Shown here piece after piece: positions 23,639 through 63,293 of a DNA stretch of 64,000 nucleotides (position 1 is its first letter; each line of letters starts with the position of its first letter). The notes below the pieces were generated by a model. It was not told where the DNA came from. It made no database searches and worked only from the letters and a program-made list of their open reading frames with translations. The DNA lies in the NCBI GenBank assembly GCA_963700285.1, contig CAVOXA010000010.1, positions 192,001 through 256,000 of the forward strand. The letters run 5' to 3'. This DNA is from an uncultured Chloroflexia bacterium (GTDB lineage: Bacteria; Chloroflexota; Anaerolineae; JAAYZQ01). The position numbers were made by a program, and so were the translations under genes.

Positions 23639-24462
23639 CTACCAATCCTCCAGGGGCGGCGCGCCGGGGAAGACCAGCATCTGCTGCAGGGACTCCTCCA
23701 GACTCTCTGTGCCCTGGGCTGCAGCCTCGAGTAGCTGTCGGGCTTGCTCTTTGCTCAAGCCAGCGACCTGCTGAGGCTGGTTGCCGGCCTGTTCCTTCTG
23801 CTCCTGATCCTGCGGCTGACCATCCTGTTGCTGGTCTGCTGCTGATCCTGGTTCTGCTGGTCCTGCTGATCCTGGTTCTGCTGGTCCTGCTGATCCTGGT
23901 TCTGCTGATCTTGCTGATCCTGGTTCTGCTGGTCCTGCTGATCCTGGTTCTGCTGATCTTGCTGATCCTGGTTCTCTTGATCCTGTTGTTCCTGGTCTTG
24001 CTGATCCTGTTGCTCTTGTTGCTGTTCCTGCAGTTTCCGCAACGCCAGTTCCAGGTTCTGCTTGGCTTCCAGATCGTCAGGCTTCAGACGCAACGCCTCT
24101 TTGTAGACCTCGATGGCCATCTCGTACTGCTCGGTCTGGAAGAAAGTGTTGCCCAGGTTGTACAGGCTGTTTTGGTCCAGATCAGGCTGGCTTTCTTCGC
24201 CCAGTAGGGCCTGTTCGATCTCCTGTTGAGCCTGCTCATAGTCCTCCAGCCGGTAGTGGCTGTTGGCCGCGTTGTAGTGTGGCTCAGCCAGTTCGGGCGA
24301 TTCCCCCGCGGCCTGCTGATAGGCCACCAGAGAACCTGTGTAATCCTGATTCGCAAACGCTTCGTTGCCGTCGTTGTTCAGCCTCTCAGCCGACTGACCG
24401 CAACTGGCCAGGGCCAGCACCAGCAGCAACAGAGTCGGCGCGAGTACAATCAGCTTCTTCAT
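23639..24462 (-). CDS. batC: BatC-like TPR lipoprotein with Q/D/N-rich linker (frameshift near 23835)
   Basis: Lipobox LASC, YNLGN TPR, AKQNLELAL, QDQQNQ repeats; an alternate frame ends ...PLEDW* at 23639. Confidence 0.8.
23841..24030. repeat. Coding tandem 24-bp repeats (QDQQNQDQ-type) in batC
   Basis: Tandem CTGATCCTGGTTCTGCTG(G/A)TC(C/T)TG units. Confidence 0.85.
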
Positions 24463-24464
24463 CT

Positions 24465-25542
24465 TTATCCCTCCCCTTCTATTGACCGCTGGCCGCCGAC
24501 CATCGCTCGTGCATGGCCGCGCGCCTTCTGAGCTACCTTGGCCACGATGCGATCCGGGATCAACTCGATGGCGATCATGAGAGCCAGCGCCGCCAGCAGG
24601 AATGGCTGGAATCGTTCGATCCCCAGGATTTCAAGTTGGCTGGACAGCTCGGCCTTTTGTAGCATGTTCAGTTCTTCAACAAACGCAGCCAGCTCACTGC
24701 CATCCGCGCTGGCCCGAAAGTACCGGCCCCCGCCGACCTCGGCAATCTGCTGCAGTGTGGCCTCGTCGAGCTTGGAGAGAACCACTTCGCCCTGCTGGTC
24801 CTGCTTGTAGCCAATGATCTGACCCCGGGCGTCGTATTCTGGGATCGGCTCGCCCTGCGGCGATCCAAAACCAATGGCGTAGAGCATGATGCCCTGTTCG
24901 GCTGCCGCTTCTGCCATGGCCAGCGCATCGCCGCCGTGATCCTCGCCATCGGTGATCAACACGATCACCTTCTGGCTGGTCCGCGACATGTCAAAGCCGG
25001 CCATGGCCGTGCGGATGGCGTCACCGATGGCGGTACCGGGCCTCGAAATCACCTCCGGCCGGGCGTTGTCCAGGAAGGTCAGGGCCGTGCCATAGTCGGA
25101 GGTCAGCGGGAACTGGACAAAGCTGGCTCCCGAAAAGAGGACCAGGCCGATCTCGTCGCCGCCCAGCCGCGTCATCAGGTCGGCAATCTCCATCTTGGCC
25201 CGGCTCAGGCGGTCGGGCTTGATGTCTTGGGCCAACATGCTCTTGGACACGTCCAGGGCAACCATCACCTCGATGCCCTCCTGCTCGACCTCCTGGATCA
25301 CCGTGCCCCACATGCGGCCGGGCCAGCGAGATGAGCAGCAATGCCAGGACGACGAGCCACAGGCCATCCCGCCAGCGGCGGCCGCGCCAGTTGACCGTGT
25401 TGCTCAGGCGCTGCACCAGCGCCGGATCTCCCAGCCGGCCGAGATCCCTCTTGCGCCGCCGGGCCGCCCACACCAGAAAGAGACCCATCAGCGGCAGTAG
25501 TGTCAACAATCCGTACAAGAAAACCGGTTGTGCGAAAGTCAT
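24465..25542 (-). CDS. batB: BatB vWA domain protein (frameshift near 25315)
   Basis: MTFAQP...LARP then ALDVSKSMLAQD MIDAS motif, PLTSD and ITDGED. Confidence 0.85.
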
Positions 25543-25645
25543 AGTTACCCATCCTTTTCCGTCTTGCTCAGAGCATCGTGTTGCGTGATTCGTGGTCCGT
25601 GACCTGTGGACATGTTGGGCGTCACACGCACCACGTGCCACGTAC

Positions 25646-26655
25646 CTACGGCAGTTTCCTAAACAGCGTTTTCCGCAGGAACGCCTCGCTCACGACGAGC
25701 CCCAGGGCAGGCAAAAGCAGCCAGCCCATCAGTTCCTGGTAGCGGGTAAAACGTTCTACCTCTATCTGAGATTTCTCCAGGCTGTCGATCTCGTCATAGA
25801 TCTGCTTTCAGTCCCGCTGTATCCTCCGCCCGGAAGTAGCGACCGCCGGTGGCAGCGGCAATCTCTTGCAGCGTGGCCTCGTCTAACTGGCTTTCCTGAT
25901 AAGTGATCTGCTGCCGGCCAAAAGCGTCTACTATGGGGACCGGTACCTGTCCAGGCCGTCCCATGCCGATGGTATAGACCTTGATCCCCAACACCTCGGC
26001 CGCTTGCGCCGCCGTCAAGGGATCGATCTCGCCGGCGTTGTTGACGCCATCGGTCAGCAGGATGACGACTTTGCTCTTGGCATCCGAGTCCTTGAGCATG
26101 TTGCCAGCGTTGGCCAGCCCCATGCCGATGGCTGTGCCATCGTCGATGCCCAGGTCGGTGGCCAGCTTGCTGCGATCCAGCAGCCGGATCAGCACGTTGT
26201 GGTCGGTCGTGGGCGGGCTCTGGCTAAAGGCGTCGCTGGCAAAGACCACCAGGCCGATGGCGTCGTAGGGACGTCCCTGCACAAAGTCGGCGATGACATC
26301 CTTGGCCGCCTCCAGCCGGTTCTGCGGCTCAAAGTCGAGCGAGGCCATGCTGCCCGAGATGTCCAGTGCCAGGGCAATGTCTACGCCCTCGCCCTTGATG
26401 ATCTCGCGGGCCTGCCCCGTCTGCGGCCGGGCGACGGCGATGACGATCAAGGCCATGGCCAGGATCCGCAGCGCGGTCAGAGTGGGGCGCAGGGCAATGC
26501 GCCACGAACGAGTAGGCTTGGCCGCCAGCTTGACGTCGGCGTAGCGCAGGCCCGAAGGCCGCGACCACTTTCTGGCCAGCAGAGGCCAGGCTGCCAAGAC
26601 AGGTAGCAAGCAGCAACAGACTGAGAAGCCATGGTGATTCGAAACGAAAGATCAT
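25646..26655 (-). CDS. batA: BatA vWA domain protein (frameshifts near 26606 and 25810)
   Basis: MIFRFESPWLL, ARPQ, DISGSM, GTAIG, LTDGVNN, TGGRYFRA; alternate frame ends FRKLP*. Confidence 0.85.
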
Positions 26656-26659
26656 GAGT

Positions 26660-27696
26660 CTAACTCCTATTCCCAGATTGGTAGCTGAGCCGGCGTGTTG
26701 GCACAGGAGCGGCCGGAGGCTGCTCCTCAGTCGCAGCCTCAAGCTCTGGCCTGGGCCTGGTCAAGTCTACCAGCGAGCGAGCCTCGACCGTCGCCTGGCT
26801 GGCCGTTTCCACGTCCGGAATGAACTTGGCAAACTTGACCAGGTCAGCTGTCCATAAACAGGTCCAGAAAGCGCCGGGTGTGATCCGGGGCAAGGTCCGA
26901 CTGCCGCAGAATGGGCTTCAGCTCGGTCGTGGTCCGATCAAGAACACGCAGATGGAACTGATCCGCCAGATAGGTCCGCAGACAATCGGTTACCAGGGTA
27001 TAGTACTCCTTGGCGCGTCCCTGTTCCAGCAGGCCCAGCCCTTCTATGCGTGCCAACTCGTCGTAGGCCACCTGCCAGGGCGGGCGATTGTCTACGGCAG
27101 GGGCCAGGCCAAAGGGCTTGCCCTGCCAGCGGCGGTAGGCCCACCAGCCCCCCACGGCTGCGGCTGCTGCTACGAGCAGTCCGCCTGCGATCCAGGGCCA
27201 TACCGGCGGTACGGCCAGCCCCGCTTGTGGCTTGATGTCCCTTAGCTCCGTATCATCCTCGGCCAGCGTCGGGTTCACGGTCAGCCGGGCGGACGGGACC
27301 ACCTCTTCGGTCACCTGCCCGGCGCCGTCGCTGATGGTCAGCGGCAGTTCGGGCGTCTGGAAATCGCCCAGGTTGAACAGGGTGACCTCGATGATCTGGC
27401 TGTGTCGTTTCCGTACCATCGTCGTTGGCTACAGTGGCGGCCTGGGATTGGCTCCGTACCTCAAACTCGCCCCACATCTGCTCCAGTTTGGGGATGATGA
27501 CCTGGTAGCCCGCCGGATGCTTCACCTCCAGCGTCAACTGGACGGGGTCGCCCACGGCCAGCTCGCCCCTGTCAGGCGTCAGTGTCGCCTGCACCCCGTC
27601 GTCAGCTTGGGCCTGCGTGACGACCATGAGCGTGAGGGTGAAGAGGAGGAACCAGAAGGCTAGCCGTCTTACGTCTATTCTAACCATTCGAATCAT
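26660..27696 (-). CDS. Bat-operon membrane protein (DUF4381-like; frameshifts near 27400 and 26855)
   Basis: Fragments VGDPVQLTL, LRDIKP, TM, LDRTTTE and ADLVKFAK in successive frames. Confidence 0.72.
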
Positions 27697-27779
27697 TCCT
27701 TTCTACGGTTCACGGATCAGGGACTGGGCAAGTGGGGCCGCGAGCCCTCGGACTGCCAGAGCCCAGGTTCGCGAGTTCC

Positions 27780-28670
27780 CTAATGCCTAATCCGCTTGTT
27801 GCGCTTCTGAAAAAAGATGGTCAGCGCCTTGGCATAGTCCTGGTCGGTCTGGATCTTGACGCGGTCGACGCCCGCGTTTGCCAGGGTCTTTTGCTTGACA
27901 GCCTCGAACTGCCCAGTACGCCGGGCAAAATCGCTGCCGCCAGGCTGGGTCACTCGTGTCCAGCCACACCAGCTCGCCTGATTCGGCATCCTCCAGGGCC
28001 AGCATGACCCACGTCGGCGATCTCGGACTCCATGCGGGTCATGCAGGTCAACGGCGATCAGGTCGTGCCTGCGGTTTGTCATGAAAAGGGGCTTGCTATA
28101 GCGGTCTGGGTCATCCATAAAGTCCGAAACCAGAAAGATGATGCTCCGGCGTTTGAGTATCTGGTTGATGCTGTCCAGCGCCAGCTTGATGTCGGTACCA
28201 TTGCCCTCTGGCTCAAAGGCCAGCAGCTCGCGGATCAGGCGCAGCACGTGGCTGCGCCCCTTGCGCGGCGGGATATACAGTTCCACCCTGTCGGTAAAGA
28301 TCAACAGCCCGACTTTGTCCTTGTTGTTCGTGGCCGAGAAGGACAGCACCGATGCCAGCTCGGCTGCCAACTCTCGCTTGAACACGCCTTGCGAGGCAAA
28401 GTCGCCCGATCCGCTGGCATCAACCACCAACATGACGGTCAGCTCACGTTCCTCGACATACTCTTTGACAAAGGGCTGTCCCATCCGGGCGGTAACGTTC
28501 CAATCGATGGTCCGTACCTCGTCGCCGGGCTGGTAGGGCCGTACTTCGTCAAATTCCATGCCCCTTCCCTTAAAGACAGAGTGATACTCACCGGCGAAAC
28601 TGTCATTGACCAGCCGTCGCGTTCGGATCTCGATGTGACGGATTTTGCTCATCAGTTCGGTTGTTAGCAT
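27780..28670 (-). CDS. DUF58 protein (MoxR-associated)
   Basis: FKGRGMEFDEVRPYQPGDEVRTIDWNVTAR and EEREL; short out-of-frame segment near 28030-27930. Confidence 0.9.
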   Translation of the reverse strand: MLTTELMSKIRHIEIRTRRLVNDSFAGEYHSVFKGRGMEFDEVRPYQPGDEVRTIDWNVTARMGQPFVKEYVEERELTVMLVVDASGSGDFASQGVFKRELAAELASVLSFSATNNKDKVGLLIFTDRVELYIPPRKGRSHVLRLIRELLAFEPEGNGTDIKLALDSINQILKRRSIIFLVSDFMDDPDRYSKPLFMTNRRHDLIAVDLHDPHGVRDRRRGSCWPWRMPNQASWCGWTRVTQPGGSDFARRTGQFEAVKQKTLANAGVDRVKIQTDQDYAKALTIFFQKRNKRIRH

Positions 28671-28805
28671 AGTTCACATACTCCAATTGCCTTGATGCGT
28701 ACGGCGTGTTGCGTGGTACGTACTGCGTGGTACGTGTTGCGTGTTGCGTGCTATGCGCGCGTGCCCTCATCGGCACGGGCCACGTTGCACGCATCACGCA
28801 TCACG

Positions 28806-29799
28806 CTACGGTACTTCGGTATAGTCCAGGATCCGCTGTACAATGTCGGCGCTGGCCACATTCTCTGCCTCGGCCTCGTAGCTGACAATCACACGGTGGC
28901 GCAGCACGTCAGGAGCAACCTCTTTGACGTCATCGGGTGTCACAAAGCCGCGGCCTTTGATGAAGGCCTGTGCCCTGGCTGCGAGGATCAGGTTGATGCC
29001 AGCCCGCGGCGAAGCCCCAAAGGCGATAAAGGGCCGCAGATCCGACAGGCCATTGTTGCCCGGGTTGCGGGTGGTCAGCACCAGGTTGAGGACATAGTTC
29101 TTGATCTTGTCGTCCACATAGACCTGCCGTACCATCTCTCTGGCTCGCAGGATCTGGTCTGGGCTGACAACCGGCCTGACTGGCGGCAGCGGCTCACCCG
29201 TCATGCGGTCAATGATCAGGCGCTCCTCGTTGGGCTTGGGATAGCCAACGATTACCTTGAGCATAAAGCGATCCACCTGTGCTTCCGGCAGGGGATAGGT
29301 GCCTTCCTGCTCGATGGGGTTCTGCGTGGCCAGTACCAGGAACAGGTCGTCCATCTGGTAGGTGGTGTTGCCGATGGTGATCTGCCGCTCCTGCATCGCC
29401 TCCAGCAACGCGCTCTGCACTTTGGCCGGCGCGCGGTTGATCTCGTCGGCCAGGACAAAGTTGGCGAACAGCGGGCCCTGGTGGACGGCGAACTCGCCCG
29501 TCTTCATGTTGTACATCTGGGTCCCCACCAGGTCGGCGGGCAGCAGGTCGGGCGTGAACTGGATGCGGGAAAAATCGGCCTGGATGGCCTGGGCCATGGT
29601 CTTGATCAGACAGCGTCTTGGCCAGGCCAGGCACGCCTTCCAGCAGGATGTGGCCGTCGGCCAGCAGCGCGATCAGTACCCGCTCGACCATCGATTCCTG
29701 GCCCACCATCACAGTGTTGACCTCGGCCAGGAGGTCGTGCAGAAAGAGCGCCTCCCTTTCCACCTGTGCATTGAGTTGCCGAATGTTTGCGATATCCAT
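28806..29799 (-). CDS. moxR: MoxR-family AAA+ ATPase (frameshift near 29610)
   Basis: EGVPGLAKT, RIQFTPDLLPAD, DEINRAPAKVQSALLE and QNPIEQEGTYPLPEAQVDRF. Confidence 0.93.
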
Positions 29800-29920
29800 A
29801 GTAACCTCTCCTCTATGCGATTTCAACCAAGTGGGTTGATGGTACTGGGCACAGCATATCATAGAGGAGGATACTGCGTCTTTAACCCAAGTTCAAGGGT
29901 TGCTTAAGAATGCTTAAGGT

Positions 29921-30123
29921 AACCTCCCGCAGGTTATCCATGGTGTGACTTGCCCTCGTCGTGAAACCTGGATAACCACAGGGCGGGCTCTACAACGACA
30001 AACCTGCGGGAGGTTCGGCCGCACGCTCAACCTCCCGCAGGTTCTCCACCGAGTAGCTTGCCCTGGTCGTGAAACCCTGGTTGCCACAGGGCAAGCTCTG
30101 TCACGACAAACCTGCGGGAGTTT
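29921..30123. repeat. Two tandem 95-bp REPIN-like units
   Basis: Units 29921-30015 and 30029-30123, each AACCTCCCGCAGGTT, a 65-nt related spacer, then AACCTGCGGGAG(G/T)TT. Confidence 0.85.
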
Positions 30124-30134
30124 CGGCGGGAGGG

Positions 30135-30163
30135 TTGACAAAAATGACAACTAGGCTTACAAT
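30135..30163 (+). promoter_or_regulatory. Sigma70 promoter
   Basis: TTGACA-17 nt-TACAAT upstream of the recombinase-like gene. Confidence 0.65.
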
Positions 30164-30202
30164 AACCGCTGCGTGCTATGCGAAGTGAAGGAGGAAAAGC
30201 CC

Positions 30203-31153
30203 ATGTCCATCGAACAACTGCCGCTCTTTCCGGGCAACGAGCCCCAAACGGTAACCCAGCGATCCGATCTGAGCGCCGATTCACCCCTCAGCACGGCCAT
30301 GGAGCGCTTCCGCAACCACATGGTCCAGCAGGACTATGCCGATAACACCATCAAATCTTTCCTGGGCGACCTGCGCATCCTTGGCCGCTATCTGAAACAG
30401 GATCTTGCTGTCGGCCAGATCAGCACCAAAAACCTGCTGGCCTACCTCCACTGGCTACAGCACGAACGGGGCAAGCCCTGCAGTCCCAAATCGTACGCCC
30501 GGCGGCTGACCACGCTCAAGGTGTTCTTTGCCTGGCTGGCTCGCCTGGAGGTCATACCGGCCGATCCTGCCGCTGCCCTGGTTCACAAACCGGTCCAGAC
30601 CCCACTGCCCCGCATCCTCTACGACCAGCAGGTGGAGGAGGTACTGGCCCTCACCCAGAGCATGAGGGCCGGCGACACAACTGCCGAAAAGCCCGATCCC
30701 CGGCCCCACCTGCTGGTCACCCTGCTGCTGCATACCGGCATCAAAAAGCAGGAATGCATGGACATCAAGCTGATCCACATTGACGCAGCCAACGTCGCCG
30801 GGCCAGCGGTCCAAATCCGCTACGAAAAACCGCGCATGCAGTACAAAGAAAGACGCCTGCGCCTACCCTCGGGCTGGCCCAGTACGCTGGCCGAATACCG
30901 CAAGGCCTACGAGCCCCAGGAGTACCTTTTTCCCTGCACAGCCCGGAACCTGGAATATGTGCTGACCGACGTCGGCAAGCAGGCCGGCCTGGGCGGCGGC
31001 CTGTCCTTCGAGATGCTGCGCTGGACCTGCGCCGTCCGCGACTACCAGGCCCGCATGGACCCCGATCGCCTGCGGCGCAAGATGGGGCTGTCGCAAATGA
31101 GCTGGAAAGAAACCGAACCCAAGATCATCCGCCTTGCAGAACCGGCACTGTGA
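30203..31153 (+). CDS. Tyrosine recombinase-fold (XerD-like) protein, catalytic residues degenerate
   Basis: SAM-like N domain (NTIKSFLGDL, SYARRLTTLKVFFAWL), LPRIL, LLHTGIKKQE and FEMLRWTCA. Confidence 0.8.
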   Translation: MSIEQLPLFPGNEPQTVTQRSDLSADSPLSTAMERFRNHMVQQDYADNTIKSFLGDLRILGRYLKQDLAVGQISTKNLLAYLHWLQHERGKPCSPKSYARRLTTLKVFFAWLARLEVIPADPAAALVHKPVQTPLPRILYDQQVEEVLALTQSMRAGDTTAEKPDPRPHLLVTLLLHTGIKKQECMDIKLIHIDAANVAGPAVQIRYEKPRMQYKERRLRLPSGWPSTLAEYRKAYEPQEYLFPCTARNLEYVLTDVGKQAGLGGGLSFEMLRWTCAVRDYQARMDPDRLRRKMGLSQMSWKETEPKIIRLAEPAL

Positions 31154-31157
31154 GCGC

Positions 31158-31191
31158 AACCTCCCGCAGGTTTCCGAACCTGCGGGAGGTT
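31158..31191. repeat. REP-like palindrome
   Basis: AACCTCCCGCAGGTT-TCCG-AACCTGCGGGAGGTT, perfect 15-bp arms. Confidence 0.9.
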
Positions 31192-31213
31192 CATCTGTCC
31201 AAGGAGGCCAACC

Positions 31214-31792
31214 ATGCCCTACCGTGGTGACGTATTCGCCCCAGACCACTACTACCACGTCTACAATCGGGCCGTGGACGGAGCCCTGCTCTTTTTCAAC
31301 CCCGGCAACTATGAGCACTGCTTGCGCCTCGTCAAACGCTACCAGGAAAAGTATGGCGCCGCCGTGATCGCCTATTGCCTCATGCCCAACCACTACCACT
31401 TTCTCCTCCGCCAGGAGACCGATGTCCCGCTCTCCAGGTTCATCAACGTGCTCTTTAATGCCTACGTGCAAGCCGTGAACCGGCAGCAGGGGCGCAAAGG
31501 AACGCTATTCGAGGGACGCTTCAAGCACATCTGGGTCGACCGTGAGGAGTACCTGGTCCACCTCTGTCGCTATATCCACCTCAACCCATTGAAGGCAGGT
31601 CTTGTGCCACGATTGGAGGACTGGGCCTACTCCAACTACCTGGAATGGCTCGGCCAGCGGGCCGGGACGCTAAAGGACGAGGCTTTCATCCACGATCGAT
31701 TCCCGACACCCGGGTCATACCAGCAGTTCGTGGCCGATTATGCCGGAGAGCTACAGGCCCGCGACCTTGTCGAAAAGTATCTCTGGGACTAG
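31214..31792 (+). mobile_element. REP-associated tyrosine transposase (RAYT/TnpA-REP, Y1 HUH family)
   Basis: YYHVYNR, CLMPNHYH (HUH), LFEGRFK, YIHLNP and WAYSNY; flanked on both sides by REP palindromes. Confidence 0.9.
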
Positions 31793-31797
31793 CCCTC

Positions 31798-31832
31798 AAC
31801 CTCCCGCAGGTTTCGGAAACCTGCGGGAGGTT
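31798..31832. repeat. REP-like palindrome
   Basis: AACCTCCCGCAGGTT-TCGGA-AACCTGCGGGAGGTT. Confidence 0.9.
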
Positions 31833-31853
31833 GGGCAGCACGAGGCACAGACT

Positions 31854-34800
31854 ATGAGAAACCAAACCCGATTGCTCCTCCTGGCTCTATTCTTCAGCCT
31901 GCTGGCCGTCCCTGCCCTGGCCCAATCCACAGCGCCGCCAGAGCCAACCCCGCCTCCGGCCATTATGGTCATCCAGCCCACGCCAGTCCCATCGCCCGCA
32001 CCCCAGGGGAACCTGCTCCAGCAGGTATGGGTGAAGAATAGGGCAGAGATCCTCCTGGGCTTTATCGCGGCCGTCGTCGCCGGTATTCTGGTCGGCGTAT
32101 TCTTGCGGCAGATCGCCGAGACGCTGGCCGGCTGGGCCAGCCGCCTTTTTCACTTTCTCTTTGACCGCTTTGCCAGCGCTCCCCTCTTGAGCCTGCGCTA
32201 CGAGAAACGCTACCGGGAGACGCTGTCAGCCGCTCTCCAGACCCTGGCCTCGTCCAACATCGTGGACCGGGACGTACGCTTGGACCAGGTCTACGTGCCG
32301 GTACAGCTCACGGAAGAGACCCAGCCTGGGGGAAGCACGACCTTCGAGGACCGCTTCCAGTGGGACGAGGACCGCCGCCGCCGGCAGCGCCAGCGTGCCG
32401 TCGAGCCCTGGGATGCGGTGCGCCGCTTCCAGCGGCTGGTGGTCCTGGGTGAGCCGGGCGCAGGCAAGACCACTTACCTGCACCACCTGGCCTTCATGTG
32501 CGCCCAGCGGAAGCGGCTGCCTGACTACACGCCCATCTTTGTCGAGCTGCGGAACCTGGTGGGTGCTGAGCGACTGGAGGACGCGCTGCCCGCCGAGTTC
32601 GCCCGGCGCAGTTTCCCCAACGCCAGGCCGTTCATCGAGCGCCGCCTGGCGGATGGGCGCTGCCTGATCCTGCTGGACGGCCTGGACGAAGTGGAGAGTG
32701 AGGCCCACCACCAAGAGGTGGTGTCGCTGGTAAAGGACTTTGCCGACCGGCACGCCCGCGATCCGGAACGCGACAGTGGCCCGCGCAACATCATCGTCGT
32801 CTCCTGCCGCACCTACAGCTACGAGCACGGGCCCCAACTCGCCGGCTTTACCCGGACCATGGTCATGGACTTTGACGACCCGGCCATCGAGCGCTTTGCC
32901 CACAACTGGTTCCGAGATGGGGACCTGCGCCCCCTGGCCGGCGAACTGCTGGCCGTCCTGGACAGCAACCGGCGCTTCAAGGAGCTGGCCCGCAACCCGC
33001 TGCTGTTGTTGCTCATCGTCTACCACTATGAGCGGGAGCGCAACCTGCCCGACCTGCGCGCCGAACTCTACCGCCACTGTATCCGAACCCGCATCACGCG
33101 CTGGAACGTGATGCGCGGCACACACCGCGGCCGTTTCGGCGAGACCGACAAGTGGCGCATGCTGCGTGATCTGGCCCTGGATCTCTACCGCCGGGAGGAG
33201 CAGGGCCTCATCGACCGGGAGACGCTGTTGGCCTGGCTCGACGTCTTTGCCGCTGGCCTCCGCCTGCCCGAGGGCATGAATCCGGCTGACCTGCTGGACG
33301 AGGTGGTCCGCACCAGCGGCCTTGTCCAGGAACGCGCCATCGAGCGCTATGGCTTTTCGCACCTGACCCTCCAGGAGTATTTTGCCGCCGAGGGGGTGGA
33401 CCGGCTGGGGGCGCAGGCGGGGGCCGCGCTCCTGGGCGAGCGCCTGCCCGACCCCCGCTGGCAGGAGGTGATCCTGCTCTACTGCGGCCTGGCCGACGAC
33501 GCCGCACCGCTGCTGCGGCGCGTCTTGCAGCGGACCGGGGACGATGGCCCCGACGCCTGGCTCCAGGCGGCGCGCTGCCTGGCCGAGGGCGCCCGTGTTA
33601 CCGACGACGAGGTCTGCCGCGAGGCGGCCCGCGGCCTGGTGGGCCTCCTGCGCGAGGTTGAGGCTGGCGATCAGGAAGCGCTCACCGCCGAGGAAAGCGG
33701 CGAGGTCGTCGCCTCCCTGCAGTCCTTTGCCGCCGCCGAGCTGCCCGGCCACGTGTCCACCCTGCTGGAGAGCCAGCAGCCCGGCGACGCCCTGCTGGCC
33801 GCCCGCCTGCTGCCGGAGGGGGCGAACGCCGAGCTGCGGGCTGAGGTCAGCCGCCGCATGGCCGCCCTGGCCAGCGGCGGGGAGACGGTCGAGCGGCGCG
33901 TGGCTTCTGCCGCCCTGGGCTGGATTGCCGGGGCAGACGCCAGCACGGTCGCCATCCTGCGGGCGGGTCTGGCCGACCCTGACCCCGCCGCCCGGGCCGA
34001 GGCCGCCCGCGCCCTGGGCCGCCTCGGGGCCAGCGACGAGCAGACCATCGCCGGCCTGCTGCAGATCTATGCCGGCGACCCGCATGACCCAGCCCGCCAC
34101 GCAGCCCTGGAGGCCCTGCTGGTCTTGGGTCGCGCCGCCGACCTGGGCCTGGTCCCGGTTCCCGCCGGCGAATTCCTAATGGGCAGCACGGAGGACGACC
34201 GTCAGGCCGGCGACAACGAGAAACCCCAACACCGCCTCTACCTGCCCGCCTACTATATCGACCGTACCCCTGTGACCAACGCCCAGTACCAGCGTTTCAT
34301 CGAGGCCGGGGGCTATGCCAGCGCCGCCTACTGGGCCGAGGCCATTGAAGCCAGGCACTGGAAGGACGGGGCCTATGTGGAGCATCAGGCATTCGGTGGT
34401 GAGCCCCGCAGGCAGCCAGTATACTGGGAAGAGCCCAAGTGGAATGCCAACGACCAGCCGGTGGTGGGCGTCTCCTGGTACGAGGCCCTGGCCTACGCCC
34501 GCTGGGCCGGCAAGCGCCTGCCCAGCGAGGCCGAGTGGGAAAAGGCCGCCCGCTGGGACCTCGAGGCCGGCCGCAGCCGGGCCTACCCCTGGGGTGATAC
34601 CTGGGATCCAGATCGTTGCAACACCGAGGAAGCGGGGGCGGGCCAGACGACGCCAGTTGGGCAGTTTTCGCCCCGGGGCGATAGCCCCTGCGACGCGGCC
34701 GATATGGCTGGCAACGTCTGGGAGTGGTGCAGCACCCGTTGGGGCCCTGCCTACCCCTACGATCCCGACGACGGACGCGAGGACCTGGCAGGCGGTGATG

Positions 34801-34959
34801 ACATTGGACGCATCGTACGCGGCGGTTCCTGGTATAATGACAAATCTCGGGCGCGTTGCGCCTGCCGCAACGGGGACTACCCGCTCGACTGGGTACAACA
34901 TCAGGGGTTTTCGCTGCTGTTGCGCCACGTCTTCTCCATCCCCCGGTTCTGGATCCTGA
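31854..34959 (+). CDS. DGR target: signal peptide + TM + NACHT NTPase + HEAT repeats + FGE-sulfatase/C-type-lectin domain
   Basis: Walker A GEPGAGKTT, Walker B LILLDGLDE, NPLLL, FSHLTLQEYFAA, HEAT repeats (RAEAARALGRLG), FGE motifs RLPSEAEWEKAAR, DMAGNVWEW and RGGSW; removing one G at 34891-34893 gives ...YNIRGFRCC...GS* at 34959 (as read it ends at 34967). Confidence 0.9.
34849..34929 (+). repeat. DGR variable repeat (VR)
   Basis: Aligns with 36578-36657; 10 substitutions, all opposite TR adenines, plus one extra G. Confidence 0.95.
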
Positions 34960-35004
34960 GGTTCTGACGTGCTGGATTCTGATCGCTGGCCTGCTGCGGG
35001 GGGT

Positions 35005-35024
35005 GTGGGGGGCGTGCCCCCCAC
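35005..35024 (+). other. GC-rich hairpin downstream of VR (candidate DGR target-recognition cruciform)
   Basis: GTGGGGGG-CGTG-CCCCCCAC, 8-bp stem and 4-nt loop, about 75 nt after VR; no identical copy after TR. Confidence 0.55.
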
Positions 35025-35039
35025 CCGATCGCCCAGCCG

Positions 35040-35073
35040 AACCTCCCGCAGGTTTCTGAACCTGCGGGAGGTT
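35040..35073. repeat. REP-like palindrome
   Basis: AACCTCCCGCAGGTT-TCTG-AACCTGCGGGAGGTT immediately before the RT start. Confidence 0.9.
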
Positions 35074-35083
35074 GGAGATGCCC

Positions 35084-36193
35084 ATGAAGACCTACAAGAA
35101 TCTCTACCCGCGCATCTGCGCCTTTGAAAACCTGGAAATCGCCTTCCGCAAAGCGCGTCGCGGCAAGCGCCACAAGCCCAACGTCGCCGCCTTCGAGTGT
35201 AACCTGGACCTGGAGCTCCTCGATCTGCAGGACGACCTCCTCTCTGGAACCTACAGGCCCGGCGGCTACCGCCACTTTACCATCTATGAAGGCAAGCCGC
35301 GCCGCATCAGCGCCGCCCCTTTCCGCGACCGGGTGGTGCACCACGCTCTGTGCAATGTCATCGAGCCGATCTGGGAAGCCAGGTTCGTCCACGACTCGTA
35401 CGCCTGCCGCGCCGGCAAGGGCACCCACGCGGCCCTGGACCGCTGTACCCACTTTGCCCGGCGCTATCCCTACGTCCTGCAATGCGACGTCGTCCAGTTC
35501 TTTCCCTCGGTGGACCACGCCATCCTGCGTGACCTTCTGGCCCGCCACATCGCCTGCCGTTCCACCCTGAAGCTCATCGACCGGATCCTTGCCAGCGGCA
35601 CCGGCATACACAGCAAGAGCTACGAAATGCAGTGGTTCCCCGGCGACGACCTACTGGCTGCGACACGGCCCCGGGGCCTGCCCATCGGCAACCAGACCTC
35701 CCAGTTCTGGGCCAACGTCTACCTCCACGAACTGGACCGCTTTGTCAAGCAGACCCTGCACTGCCAGCGCCAGAGCCCTGCCTACCTGCGCTACTGCGAC
35801 GATTTCCTGCTCTTTGCCGGCGACAAGCCTACGCTGCACCGCTGGCGCCGAGAGATTGAGGGCTTTATGGCCACGCTACGTCTCAAAATCCATCCCCACA
35901 GGACCGTCGTCTACCCGGTCAAGAACGGCATCCCCTTTCTGGGTTTCAAGATCTATCCTGGTCACCGCCGGCTCAGGCGCTGCAACGGCGTACGCTTCCA
36001 GCGCCGCTTCCGAGCTCTGCTAGACTGCTACGCCACAGGCGAGATCGACCGAGAGCAGCTCGATGCCTCCGTCCGCGGCTGGGTGGCCCACACCTCCCAC
36101 GGCGACACCTGGGGATTGCGGCGCAGCCTACTCTCTCGCCACAACCTCCCGCAGGTTCGGAAACCTGCGGGAGGTTTGGATGGGCCACGATGA
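35084..36193 (+). CDS. DGR reverse transcriptase
   Basis: KPRRISAAPFRDRVVHHAL, SYACRAGKGTH, CDVVQFFPSVDH, GLPIGNQTSQFWANVYL, YCDD and FLGF; no maturase or endonuclease tail. Confidence 0.95.
   Translation: MKTYKNLYPRICAFENLEIAFRKARRGKRHKPNVAAFECNLDLELLDLQDDLLSGTYRPGGYRHFTIYEGKPRRISAAPFRDRVVHHALCNVIEPIWEARFVHDSYACRAGKGTHAALDRCTHFARRYPYVLQCDVVQFFPSVDHAILRDLLARHIACRSTLKLIDRILASGTGIHSKSYEMQWFPGDDLLAATRPRGLPIGNQTSQFWANVYLHELDRFVKQTLHCQRQSPAYLRYCDDFLLFAGDKPTLHRWRREIEGFMATLRLKIHPHRTVVYPVKNGIPFLGFKIYPGHRRLRRCNGVRFQRRFRALLDCYATGEIDREQLDASVRGWVAHTSHGDTWGLRRSLLSRHNLPQVRKPAGGLDGPR
36143..36176. repeat. REP-like palindrome inside the RT 3' end
   Basis: AACCTCCCGCAGGTT-CGGA-AACCTGCGGGAGGTT, translated as NLPQVRKPAGG. 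Confidence 0.9.
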
Positions 36194-36522
36194 AACAATC
36201 ACCCATCTTTGTCAAGCACTACGATCTTATGGCCTGGCTCATTCCTCGCACCCTGGCCTTTCCCAAGAGCCAGCGCGGGGTGCTGGCCCGCCAGGTGCAG
36301 AAGGAGCTATTTCACATCTATGAGATGCTGGTTGACGCGGGCATGGCCAATGATCCTTTGCCCCACCTTGCCGAGGTCGACAAGGGCCTCATCCGGCTGC
36401 GAACCTATCTGCGGCTGTGCCGCGACCTCAAGCTGCTGTCCATCGGCCAATACGAGCACGTTTCGCGCCTTGCAGCCGAGGTGGGAAGACTCTTGGGAGG
36501 TTGGATGCGATCCTGTGGATAG
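36190..36522 (+). CDS. avd: DGR accessory variability determinant (Avd, four-helix bundle)
   Basis: SPIFVKHYDLMAWL...FPKSQRGVLA...LRTYLRL...YEH...EVGRLLGGW; 110 aa, ATGA overlap with RT. Confidence 0.92.
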   Translation: MKQSPIFVKHYDLMAWLIPRTLAFPKSQRGVLARQVQKELFHIYEMLVDAGMANDPLPHLAEVDKGLIRLRTYLRLCRDLKLLSIGQYEHVSRLAAEVGRLLGGWMRSCG

Positions 36523-36523
36523 A

Positions 36524-36557
36524 AACCTCCCGCAGGTTTCCGAACCTGCGGGAGGTT
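36524..36557. repeat. REP-like palindrome between avd and TR
   Basis: AACCTCCCGCAGGTT-TCCG-AACCTGCGGGAGGTT. Confidence 0.9.
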
Positions 36558-36577
36558 CACCTTGGGGCCAGGCCGGA

Positions 36578-36657
36578 GGGCGCGTTGCGCCTACCGCAAC
36601 AGGAACAACCCGAACAACAGGAACAACAACAGGGGTTTTCGCTGCTGTTGCGCCACG
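36578..36657 (+). ncRNA. DGR template repeat (TR)
   Basis: GGGCGCGTTGCGCCTACCGCAACAGGAACAACCCGAACAACAGGAACAACAACAGGGGTTTTCGCTGCTGTTGCGCCACG, an AAC-rich copy of VR. Confidence 0.95.
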
Positions 36658-36878
36658 CCTCCACCAGCATGGGTCAGAAACAGCCTCTGGTTCACGGACC
36701 CGGGGCCGGTGCCCGCGGGCTGCAGCTGCTACGCTGCAGTCCGATGGAGAAGACGATGCGGCCTGTCCCTGGCCACCTCCCCACACCCCAGCGGTGTGGG
36801 GGACGGCCGAATAGAGAATAGCCCCGCCTGGCCCAGTAGGCCCGCTCCGACATGCCGGGCGGGGCGCCTCGTCCACCG

Positions 36879-36958
36879 ACCTCCCGCAGGTACGTCCGGC
36901 TGTCCGGAGCCGGACGTACCTACCTGCGGGAGGTTTCCAATTTTGAACCTGCGGGAGG
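36879..36958. repeat. Extended REP-like hairpin plus an extra half-site closing the DGR locus
   Basis: ACCTCCCGCAGGTACGTCCGGCT...AGCCGGACGTACCTACCTGCGGGAGGT followed by AACCTGCGGGAGG. Confidence 0.8.
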
Positions 36959-37003
36959 GTATGGTATACTCAGGCCGCACTGACAAGATGGGAGGGTACA
37001 ACG

Positions 37004-62660: not shown

Positions 62661-63293
62661 GTGAGACTACAGGGCTCTCGGGTTACCATCCGGCCCATGG
62701 GGCAAAAAGACATAGACGCGATGATCAGATGGCGTCCCTTTGCCGACCCCTTGTACCAACCCTTTGACTTTCCCCGCAACAGCAAGGCCGATCAGGTCCA
62801 GTGGTTCAACTGGCGAAACCAGGATGCCGGCCGGCGCCTCTATGCTGTCGAGGATGAGGCGGGCCGGGTCATTGGCAGCCTGACGCTGCGCGAGATCGAC
62901 GGGCGGCGGTCGTCCCGGCTGGGGATCACCCTGGGCGCCGATTTTGTCAGCCAGGGCTACGGCAGCGAGGCGATGCGTCTTTTCCTGGACTACTACTTTG
63001 AGGAGCTGGGCTTCGCCCGGATGGTCCTGGACGTGGCCGCCACCAACCTGCGGGCGGTTCGTGCCTACCGTGCCCTGGGCTTTCAGCGGATAGGCCACCA
63101 CTACCGGCCCGCCAACCACAAGAGCTACCGCACCGTCCGCAAAGATCCACGCTACCGCCACCTGCGTCACTTTTTCCAGCACCAGGGCACCTCGTACCAG
63201 GTACTGTTCTACGACATGGCCCTGACCCGCGAGGAATGGCTCGCCACACGCGAGGAGCAGGTCGCCACCTCTGAAAACAAGGCAGGTCCATAG
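62661..63293 (+). CDS. GNAT N-acetyltransferase (RimJ/RimL-like)
   Basis: SQGYGSEA and NLRAVRAYRALGF. Confidence 0.85.
   Translation: MRLQGSRVTIRPMGQKDIDAMIRWRPFADPLYQPFDFPRNSKADQVQWFNWRNQDAGRRLYAVEDEAGRVIGSLTLREIDGRRSSRLGITLGADFVSQGYGSEAMRLFLDYYFEELGFARMVLDVAATNLRAVRAYRALGFQRIGHHYRPANHKSYRTVRKDPRYRHLRHFFQHQGTSYQVLFYDMALTREEWLATREEQVATSENKAGP

Follow-up and report, generated by a model that had tools for sequence, protein, structure and literature searches.

The locus lies in a 64,000-nt stretch of contig CAVOXA010000010.1 from an uncultured Chloroflexia bacterium (hereafter the window, whose numbering is used for all positions), and its genes are encoded on the + strand.

Genes and elements of the DGR locus

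A resident tyrosine-recombinase-like gene, identified by Pfam and NCBIfam matches, occupies positions 30203..31153. Its last 36 residues contain no tyrosine, and it is therefore probably not a normal catalyst, judged by the catalytic motif of tyrosine recombinases. A sigma-70-like promoter match (30135..30163, + strand; 11/12 by consensus) could possibly start one + strand transcript. The recombinase gene is followed by that of a 192-aa RAYT (TnpA-Y1; 31214..31792), which matches PF01797 and scores 74 bits against NF047646, under the cut-off of 80. The RAYT carries NHYH (H60, H62) and YIHLNP (Y120) motifs, which overall are invariant or nearly so among nine aligned proteins, with H60, H62 and Y120 invariant. 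A domain search of the RAYT found Y1_Tnp (PF01797) alone, with no helix-turn-helix tail, and its match to PDB 4ER8 was weak.

The adjoining DGR is real, with an RT, an Avd, adenine-specific differences between TR and variable repeat (VR), and a VR that closes a CLec domain. According to a domain search, the target (31854..34967) comprises N-terminal hydrophobic segments, NACHT, HEAT repeats and an FGE-sulfatase (CLec) domain (PF03781, residues 766-1019), at the end of which lies the VR (34849..34931, + strand). The VR differs from the TR (36578-36659) by 10 substitutions, all at TR adenines, and by one C/T difference at the 3' boundary; it also has one extra G, possibly an assembly error, that shifts the last codons. 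Between the window and sister VRs, 17 positions differ, all at TR adenines, and the TR is identical. Among contigs of relatives, one from run X1 has a VR that departs from that of the sister at 10 positions, each a TR adenine. No remote targets of the TR were found, other CLec genes matching it at no more than 73%.

A native G/C hairpin (34998..35026, + strand) stands 65 nt past the 3' VR motif. Downstream are the reverse transcriptase (35084..36193; 369 aa, YCDD motif, PF00078), the accessory protein Avd (36190..36522; PF22296, and NF033474 at 89 bits, over the cut-off of 80) and a predicted DGR RNA (36564..36865, + strand), which consists of a 5' leader that pairs downstream, the TR, a structured 3' part and a terminal hairpin (36821-36865). 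Across eight sequences the predicted RNA has 71 pairs, 24 of them changed on both sides; an Rfam search gave no match at gathering level.

The palindromic repeat and its RAYT

An earlier note on this DNA had proposed that one palindrome recurs at the junctions of the DGR locus and belongs to the neighbouring RAYT, and both proposals were borne out. Arm searches allowing up to two mismatches returned 22 matches in the window, where 0.14 were expected. Each 15-nt arm is a small palindrome in its own right, and two arms make up a compact doublet of 34 nt. Exact compact doublets are found to the left of the RAYT (31158..31191), between RAYT and target (31798..31832), between target and RT (35040..35073), near the RT|avd junction (36143..36176) and between avd and TR (36524..36557), with loops of 4, 5, 4, 4 and 4 nt, respectively. 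The RT|avd copy was correctly noticed but is located within the RT frame (which ends at 36193), where it is translated in frame near the C-terminus as NLPQVRKPAGG. Long forms occur upstream of the recombinase as two tandem doublets with 65-nt spacers (29921..30123, comprising 29921-30015 and 30029-30123) and at the right end of the locus as a doublet with one extra arm (36878..36960). Within 7 kb there are five compact doublets, all perfect, along with two longer sites. Only two diverged copies had been reported elsewhere in the window; both are doublets (42363 and 62463), and there is in addition a single arm at 63045.

The repeat family is nonetheless dispersed. A genome-wide count gave 44 sites, 37 of them outside the locus; 27 of these are doublets, with spacers of 64-68 nt in 23/27 and of 12 nt or less in 3/27. 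Repeat density at the locus is about 190 times that of the rest of the genome. The compact form is nearly restricted to the RAYT-DGR insert in both sister genomes (5/6 in G001).

Sequence comparisons across the RAYT family support the palindrome and the neighbouring HUH-Y1 protein as a cognate pair, because doublets of this kind also occur in relatives and their arms change in step with protein identity. Where both sides of a RAYT leave room (123 loci), 96 loci have a flanking hairpin and 63 show one family on the two sides. The RAYT shares with REPtrons (Bertels and Rainey, 2011, PMC3116915; Ton-Hoang, 2012, PMC3333891) a HUH motif, a catalytic tyrosine, flanking palindromes and dispersed doublets. 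Unlike REPtrons, it has no GTAG foot (the GT[AG]G tetranucleotide canonical for groups 2 and 3 is not conserved in the copies' flanks), the arm is itself palindromic, and 44 sites is a low copy number. The preferred spacing here is 64-68 nt; in P. fluorescens, next-neighbour distances peak at 71 and 110 bp. In a motif comparison, NH[YF]H and Y[IV]HLNP are shared with TnpA-Y1 subclass 2.1 (Table 1 of Quentin, 2018, PMC6006769), which corresponds to RAYT group 1 (Bertels, 2017) and to the TIRYT/TIRtron (Di Nocera, 2013, PMC3733652); this subclass is marked by a C-terminal helix-turn-helix extension, which the 192-aa RAYT does not show, and by a median length of 238 aa. Di Nocera (2013) described double palindromic inverted repeats next to some TIRYT genes, and Quentin (2018) reported no REP-like sequences near subclass 2.1, whereas the RAYT family studied here is usually flanked by doublets.

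Insert borders, sister lineage and other genomes

The RAYT and DGR form a repeat-bounded insert of 5.8 kb (31158-36960), in keeping with the earlier note's view of the locus as bounded by repeats. Relatives show the empty site at gene-level resolution, being too distant for base-exact junctions. The recombinase, which the note had counted as part of the unit, is a resident gene present in 19/23 family genomes; the left end of the insert is the doublet at 31158, and the recombinase is thus ruled out as the unit's integrase. It is directly followed by the next resident gene in 4/17 non-sister relatives; other genes come after it in other relatives, so the site is variable. At the right end, the last arm of the long doublet falls in the -35/-10 spacer of the next resident gene's promoter match.

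Gene order in the sister locus (L008) is unchanged. All seven locus sites are kept there, compared with 12/19 dispersed sites (one-sided P about 0.08), and the arms of the five compact sites are nearly invariant; a compact doublet at a non-DGR site is conserved as well. The first of the two tandem upstream units is absent from this locus and from one contig of run X2. The G/C hairpin past the VR, present in the window and in 8/8 other homologues whose RT is at least 69% identical, has been deleted in the sister locus; the 66-nt deletion terminates at the repeat, placing it 41 nt from the 3' VR motif. This hairpin-less junction also occurs in contigs of runs X1, X2 and X5, and in the contigs of relatives it was not found together with a diversified VR on one contig. 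A second, unlinked DGR in G001 carries the same repeat family at RT|avd, and one switch in gene content between the sister genomes starts exactly at a repeat end.

A conserved coupling of RAYT and DGR was not supported by comparison with other genomes. A RAYT match was found at 2/80 RT loci, one of them the sister locus, and a phylum-wide pattern scan matched 3/401 genomes. Outside this genus, in 25 genomes holding both, 1/38 DGR RTs adjoins such a RAYT. Cognate repeats were found at the core junctions of 0/21 DGRs outside this genus (37 loci fetched, 16 without a usable arm), and among the same 21 we found no sign of cognate RAYTs targeting DGRs in trans. In L221, outside that set, a RAYT with its repeat stands after RT and avd. 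Most genes next to RAYTs have housekeeping or restriction-modification roles, with one Avd among 98 scanned. No RAYT-DGR coupling was found described in the openly readable literature searched.

DGR junctions do not appear to be general palindrome hotspots: inverted repeats occur at 1.28, 0.42 and 1.06 per kb, compared with 1.02 at flanking co-directional junctions, and library matches were found at 6/203 junctions and 6/373 co-directional controls. Among the closest homologues, 8/27 junctions carry some inverted repeat, and single DGR junctions in other lineages carry unrelated repeat families. In L077, a DUF559 repeat independently saturates another DGR. Repeats lie within 15 kb of CLec genes in 7/30 cases in G001 (four of the seven belonging to a single region; P = 1e-4) and 4/37 in this genome (P = 0.06); within 5 kb the counts are 1/30 and 1/37.

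Origin of the repeat-decorated locus

The locus probably arose by local colonisation, in which a cellular DGR of standard type and a short RAYT gene, along with that gene's own palindrome, came to occupy one repeat-bounded insertion site and the RAYT seeded further copies nearby. These copies would likely have been tolerated only at gene boundaries. By analogy with other Y1 HUH enzymes, the RAYT would cut and rejoin single-stranded repeat DNA, apparently with a local bias, and the DGR would be independent of it, RT and Avd driving mutagenic retrohoming alone. We favour this reading because the repeat is cognate to the RAYT, the bias is local, copies also lie upstream of the recombinase, and no general coupling was found. 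The earlier note held that incidental colonisation would be indicated by similar repeat density in ordinary intergenic DNA or by decay with distance from the RAYT, together with homologous DGRs lacking both elements. Density at the locus proved far higher, but such homologous DGRs exist and decay with distance is seen in part, the local excess near RAYTs dropping from 0.065 distal copies per kb in the first 2 kb to 0.03 at 5-7 kb, compared with 0.005 in this genome. Against local colonisation, the five distal sites within 7 kb exceed those at all 47 control RAYT loci (32, 9 and 6 loci with none, one and two sites; by Poisson, P = 5e-4 for a single locus and 0.024 for at least one in 48). The near confinement of the compact form to the insert, the retention of all seven sites in the sister locus, the RT|avd repeat of the second G001 DGR, and the end of the repeat run at the insert's right border also count against it.

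It is possible, though we think it unlikely, that the RAYT and an already decorated DGR instead arrived in a single block of 5.8 kb. The donor would have been rich in compact doublets, and the block would have moved through RAYT cleavage at the outer repeats or through their recombination with each other. Both insert ends coincide with repeat copies, the empty arrangement in 4/17 relatives and the sister gene-content switch at a repeat end fit such an event, and compact doublets, scarce in this genome beyond the insert, make up the dispersed form of G075 (17) and G076 (7). Ton-Hoang (2012) describes in vitro BIME recombination and proposes capture of flanking genes. However, the block was seen at one site in one genus, the repeat at its left end is what normally flanks the RAYT, the site varies between relatives in any case, and viral contigs yielded no exact compact doublet. 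More doubtful is that repeats which arrived by chance have been co-opted, one now serving the DGR as a post-VR target hairpin or a transcript-end stabiliser. The sister deletion that removed the otherwise conserved hairpin up to the repeat, the presence of the same junction in contigs of three runs and the near-invariant compact arms are consistent with this, and Guo (2011, PMC3240598) indicates that stem structure outweighs stem sequence. That study also gives stems of 7-10 bp, distances of 4-34 bp and a GRNA loop whose sequence matters, whereas the stems here are 15 bp with other loops. In addition, the strict G/C motif is found at only 17/67 RT loci, so the hairpin may be dispensable, and the non-DGR doublet is also conserved. 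Nor was the note's proposal that hairpins define the TR RNA supported: homologues without these repeats preserve its 5' helix and 3' hairpin and show compensatory changes in them, and the RNA is predicted to have its own conserved ends, with the avd|TR doublet ending 6 nt ahead of the conserved leader.

The shuffling of modules by RAYT that the note suggested (target, RT, avd, TR), taken here as integron-like exchange at the repeats, is largely refuted and in our view very improbable. Two copies bracket each module, and at target|RT other repeats are found in L010 and L014, whose RTs are close homologues and whose targets have been swapped. Yet homologues without this repeat family, like the sister locus, keep the same gene order, one copy is inside the RT frame, and no credible internal-repeat joint was present among the joints listed. 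Four trees, one each for RT, Avd, CLec and NACHT (a quick version for NACHT), all place the window sequence with the same clade. An integron-like array would have a dedicated recombinase and cassette exchange at repeats; here the recombinase is resident and no swap was seen. A RAYT-DGR hybrid system is thus mostly not supported.

As in cellular DGRs (Dore et al., 2024, PMC10907252), the locus combines RT, Avd, TR and a NACHT + CLec target. That study reports transposases and MITE-like stem-loop repeats at cellular DGR loci of multicellular bacteria, the repeats matching IS terminal repeats and degrading DGR parts; here, in contrast, the DGR is intact, all its boundaries carry one repeat family, and the Y1 enzyme cognate to that family lies next to it. 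Another group 1 RAYT adjoining diversifying genes is the TnpA-REP beside picocyanobacterial lanthipeptide genes, proposed as a diversity driver (Laurenceau, bioRxiv 10.1101/2020.03.09.984088), for which the authors later saw no strong evidence for or against causation. The lanthipeptide association is near-universal within the clade concerned, in contrast to the sporadic one between RAYT and DGR.

The locus bears on how cellular DGRs move between genomes and on what RAYTs do. Under the likeliest reading, incidental colonisation, it holds little information on DGR function. A broader scenario, which we regard as improbable, is that an entire DGR travels as the repeat-bounded cargo of a short HUH transposase, that the transposase's palindrome replaced the native target-site hairpin in the sister lineage, and that small nuclease-plus-palindrome elements (RAYT, DUF559 in L077) repeatedly take over DGR junctions; if true, such elements would give DGRs a route to spread or rebuild. 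With an intact DGR, a short Y1 enzyme, a 34-nt substrate, an empty site and a natural hairpin-less allele, the locus offers a compact test. In either case, the data point to a Chloroflexota family of short subclass-2.1-like Y1 proteins with non-GTAG doublets that vary with the protein, although the subclass was reported without REP-like flanks. As ribosome-binding sites, the repeats are plausible only for the avd of the second G001 DGR; the window genes have their own purine-rich motifs, or the repeat is at least 14 nt away.

The RAYT and its palindrome

The RAYT gene (31214..31792) encodes an HUH-Y1 transposase of 192 aa with the motifs NHYH and YIHLNP, given as signatures of subclass 2.1 in Quentin 2018; no helix-turn-helix tail was found on the protein. 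We examined 136 homologous loci, 123 of which had room on both sides; a flanking hairpin was present at 96 of these 123 and one hairpin family on both sides at 63. Arm type tracks protein identity (87 loci after a stricter filter), with a CCCG(C/G/A)AGG-type arm in nearly all homologues above ~60% identity and mostly other self-complementary arms in more distant ones. The palindrome belongs to the RAYT, and a second RAYT in the same genome (G000) has doublets of its own. In a Pfam scan of 98/215 called neighbours of RAYTs, most were housekeeping or restriction-modification genes and one encoded Avd.

In the window, the 15-nt arm has 22 matches (≤2 mismatches) against 0.14 expected. The arm search located five exact compact doublets (starts 31158, 31798, 35040, 36143 and 36524) and long forms at 29921-30123 and 36878-36960. 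Genome-wide (7.05 Mb, 22 contigs), 115 arm matches form 44 sites, 37 of them beyond the locus, and site density is ~1 per kb at the locus versus 0.005 per kb in the rest of the genome. The dense repetition described in the earlier note is thereby borne out; its placement of a repeat at every gene junction stands for the other compact copies, but the supposed RT|avd copy at 36143 sits within the RT reading frame. Among 27 doublets outside the locus, 23 have a spacer of 64-68 nt and three are compact; spacer sequences of dispersed doublets vary widely despite this kept length, and some fall into families. One region (G000:C10:1.32-1.50 Mb) holds nine sites along with additional Y1 genes that carry palindromes of their own, and several genes for NACHT-CLec or CLec proteins, not all of them intact. 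Gene content of the sister genomes diverges exactly from a doublet's end (L281:1477-1530 vs G000:C10:1421099).

The insert and its DGR

The recombinase-like gene left of the RAYT (30203-31153) is conserved, single-copy, lacks the usual C-terminal tyrosine and is present in 19 of 23 family genomes. Among 17 non-sister relatives, four have it immediately before the homologue of the 37004 gene and one has a single gene in between; none of these relatives has a RAYT match within 1.5 kb. Contigs of sequencing runs X1 and X2 also join the two genes, the short side being just 29 letters. Since relatives have an empty site, the insert runs from 31158 to 36960 with one repeat per end, and the last arm of the right-end repeat falls in the spacer of a promoter match for the next gene. 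The repeats at 29921-30123 lie outside the insert, so the repeat has spread into resident DNA.

The DGR comprises a target with NACHT, HEAT and FGE-sulfatase (CLec) domains (31854-34967), a reverse transcriptase (35084-36193) and the accessory protein Avd (36190-36522). TR and VR show 10 differences at TR adenines. In the sister locus (L008) the TR is identical and the VR differs from that of the window at 17 positions, 17/17 of them TR adenines, which indicates that one or both lineages underwent retrohoming after the split. The window VR has one additional G within a G run, which may be an assembly error because further window genes also look split across frames. Several such genes lie upstream in a minus-strand operon (23755-29862), which from its translations we take to be of MoxR/vWA/TPR type; this pattern suggests assembly indel errors. 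A search found no remote targets of the window's TR. The genome also has a second DGR with CLec targets (G000:C1:1725069-1728326), near which no arm of the repeat occurs (≤2 mismatches), and a fragmentary third (G000:C14:609912-613615).

Repeats lie 6 nt upstream and 12 nt downstream of the predicted DGR RNA. The suggestion that their hairpins define the TR RNA was not upheld: the RNA has its own 5' leader helix and 3' hairpin, conserved with compensatory changes in six homologues beyond the two sisters. Bordetella DGR RNA has similar 5'-3' pairing.

Coupling and rival explanations

A functional RAYT-DGR coupling, as earlier proposed, finds little in its favour. RAYT matches occur at 2 of 80 RT loci: one is the sister locus, and at the other the match is 3.4 kb away on the opposite strand; outside the genus, RT adjoins RAYT at 1 of 38 RT loci in fragmented assemblies. 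None of 21 testable loci has a cognate repeat at a core DGR junction, and the density of inverted repeats at DGR junctions does not exceed that at neighbouring ones. Among 401 genomes the RAYT type is found in 54, the RT in 90 and both in 27, an excess over chance when kinship and genome size are ignored. A RAYT remnant with a different repeat adjoins the DGR of a family relative (L003/L224).

Probably the DGR works conventionally and the adjoining Y1 enzyme would have seeded its own doublet with local bias, surviving copies being those in harmless places. Single-strand cleavage and strand transfer, shown for other RAYT groups (PMC3333891, PMC8266576), would be expected of this RAYT by analogy. 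Transfer of the whole block between the outer repeats is distinctly less likely. Co-option of one repeat as the target hairpin is doubtful. In its favour, and against the simple reading, a G/C hairpin present in the window and in 8/8 other close homologues is deleted in the sister, the deletion ending at the repeat, and the hairpin-less junction recurs in contigs of runs X1, X2 and X5; no contig among those runs links it to a diversified VR. Cassette shuffling, also raised earlier, is very improbable: RT, Avd, CLec and NACHT trees (the last a quick version) all group the window with its sister inside one clade, and subclades recur across trees, an agreement judged without a formal incongruence test.

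Other results count against simple local seeding by the RAYT beside an independent DGR. RAYTs in general show a local excess of distal cognate copies, but the window has five distal sites and none of 47 control loci (≥8 kb flank) more than two (P = 5e-4 for one locus, 0.024 for any of 48); in L108, a control with shorter flanks, four single arms lie at distal positions. Other genomes have compact doublets in dispersed positions, but in G000 these are nearly restricted to the insert, and the sister keeps 7/7 sites at the locus versus 12/19 dispersed ones. In the second DGR of the sister genome (L225:8356-9106, G001:C12), the window's repeat family lies at RT|avd and stops 6 nt short of the avd start; avd|TR carries a GTAG-type palindrome, and the RNA contains a variant doublet. 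In a Chloroflexales cluster comprising an RT and four NACHT-CLec targets (L077:5679-17555), a DUF559 gene has copies of another palindrome on both sides; this palindrome occurs at every cluster junction and is absent from the cluster's flanks; L064:6076-6895 is a smaller version, its DUF559 gene also bracketed by a different palindrome. The DUF559-type repeat has 120 copies in L077's genome and also clusters within an unrelated large gene, so local clustering is not DGR-specific. One 6.9-kb open frame (L330:2877-9800) has eight copies.

Known systems and loop differences

The locus is a real, lineage-specific variant whose component parts are known. Earlier work describes DGRs that have NACHT-CLec targets and MITE-like repeats close by (PMC10907252), REPtrons and REPINs (PMC3116915), and group 1 RAYTs/TIRtrons (10.1101/119735, PMC3733652), and Di Nocera's Figure 9 (PMC3733652) may already show this repeat type. 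The openly available article text that was searched described no RAYT-DGR coupling.

In the RAYT-flanking doublets, the loops at 31173-31176 and 31813-31817 are near reverse complements between window and L008 (TCCG / CGGA types), with the same arms. Template switching can invert hairpin loops; such inversion, or RAYT action, would explain the difference between the sisters.
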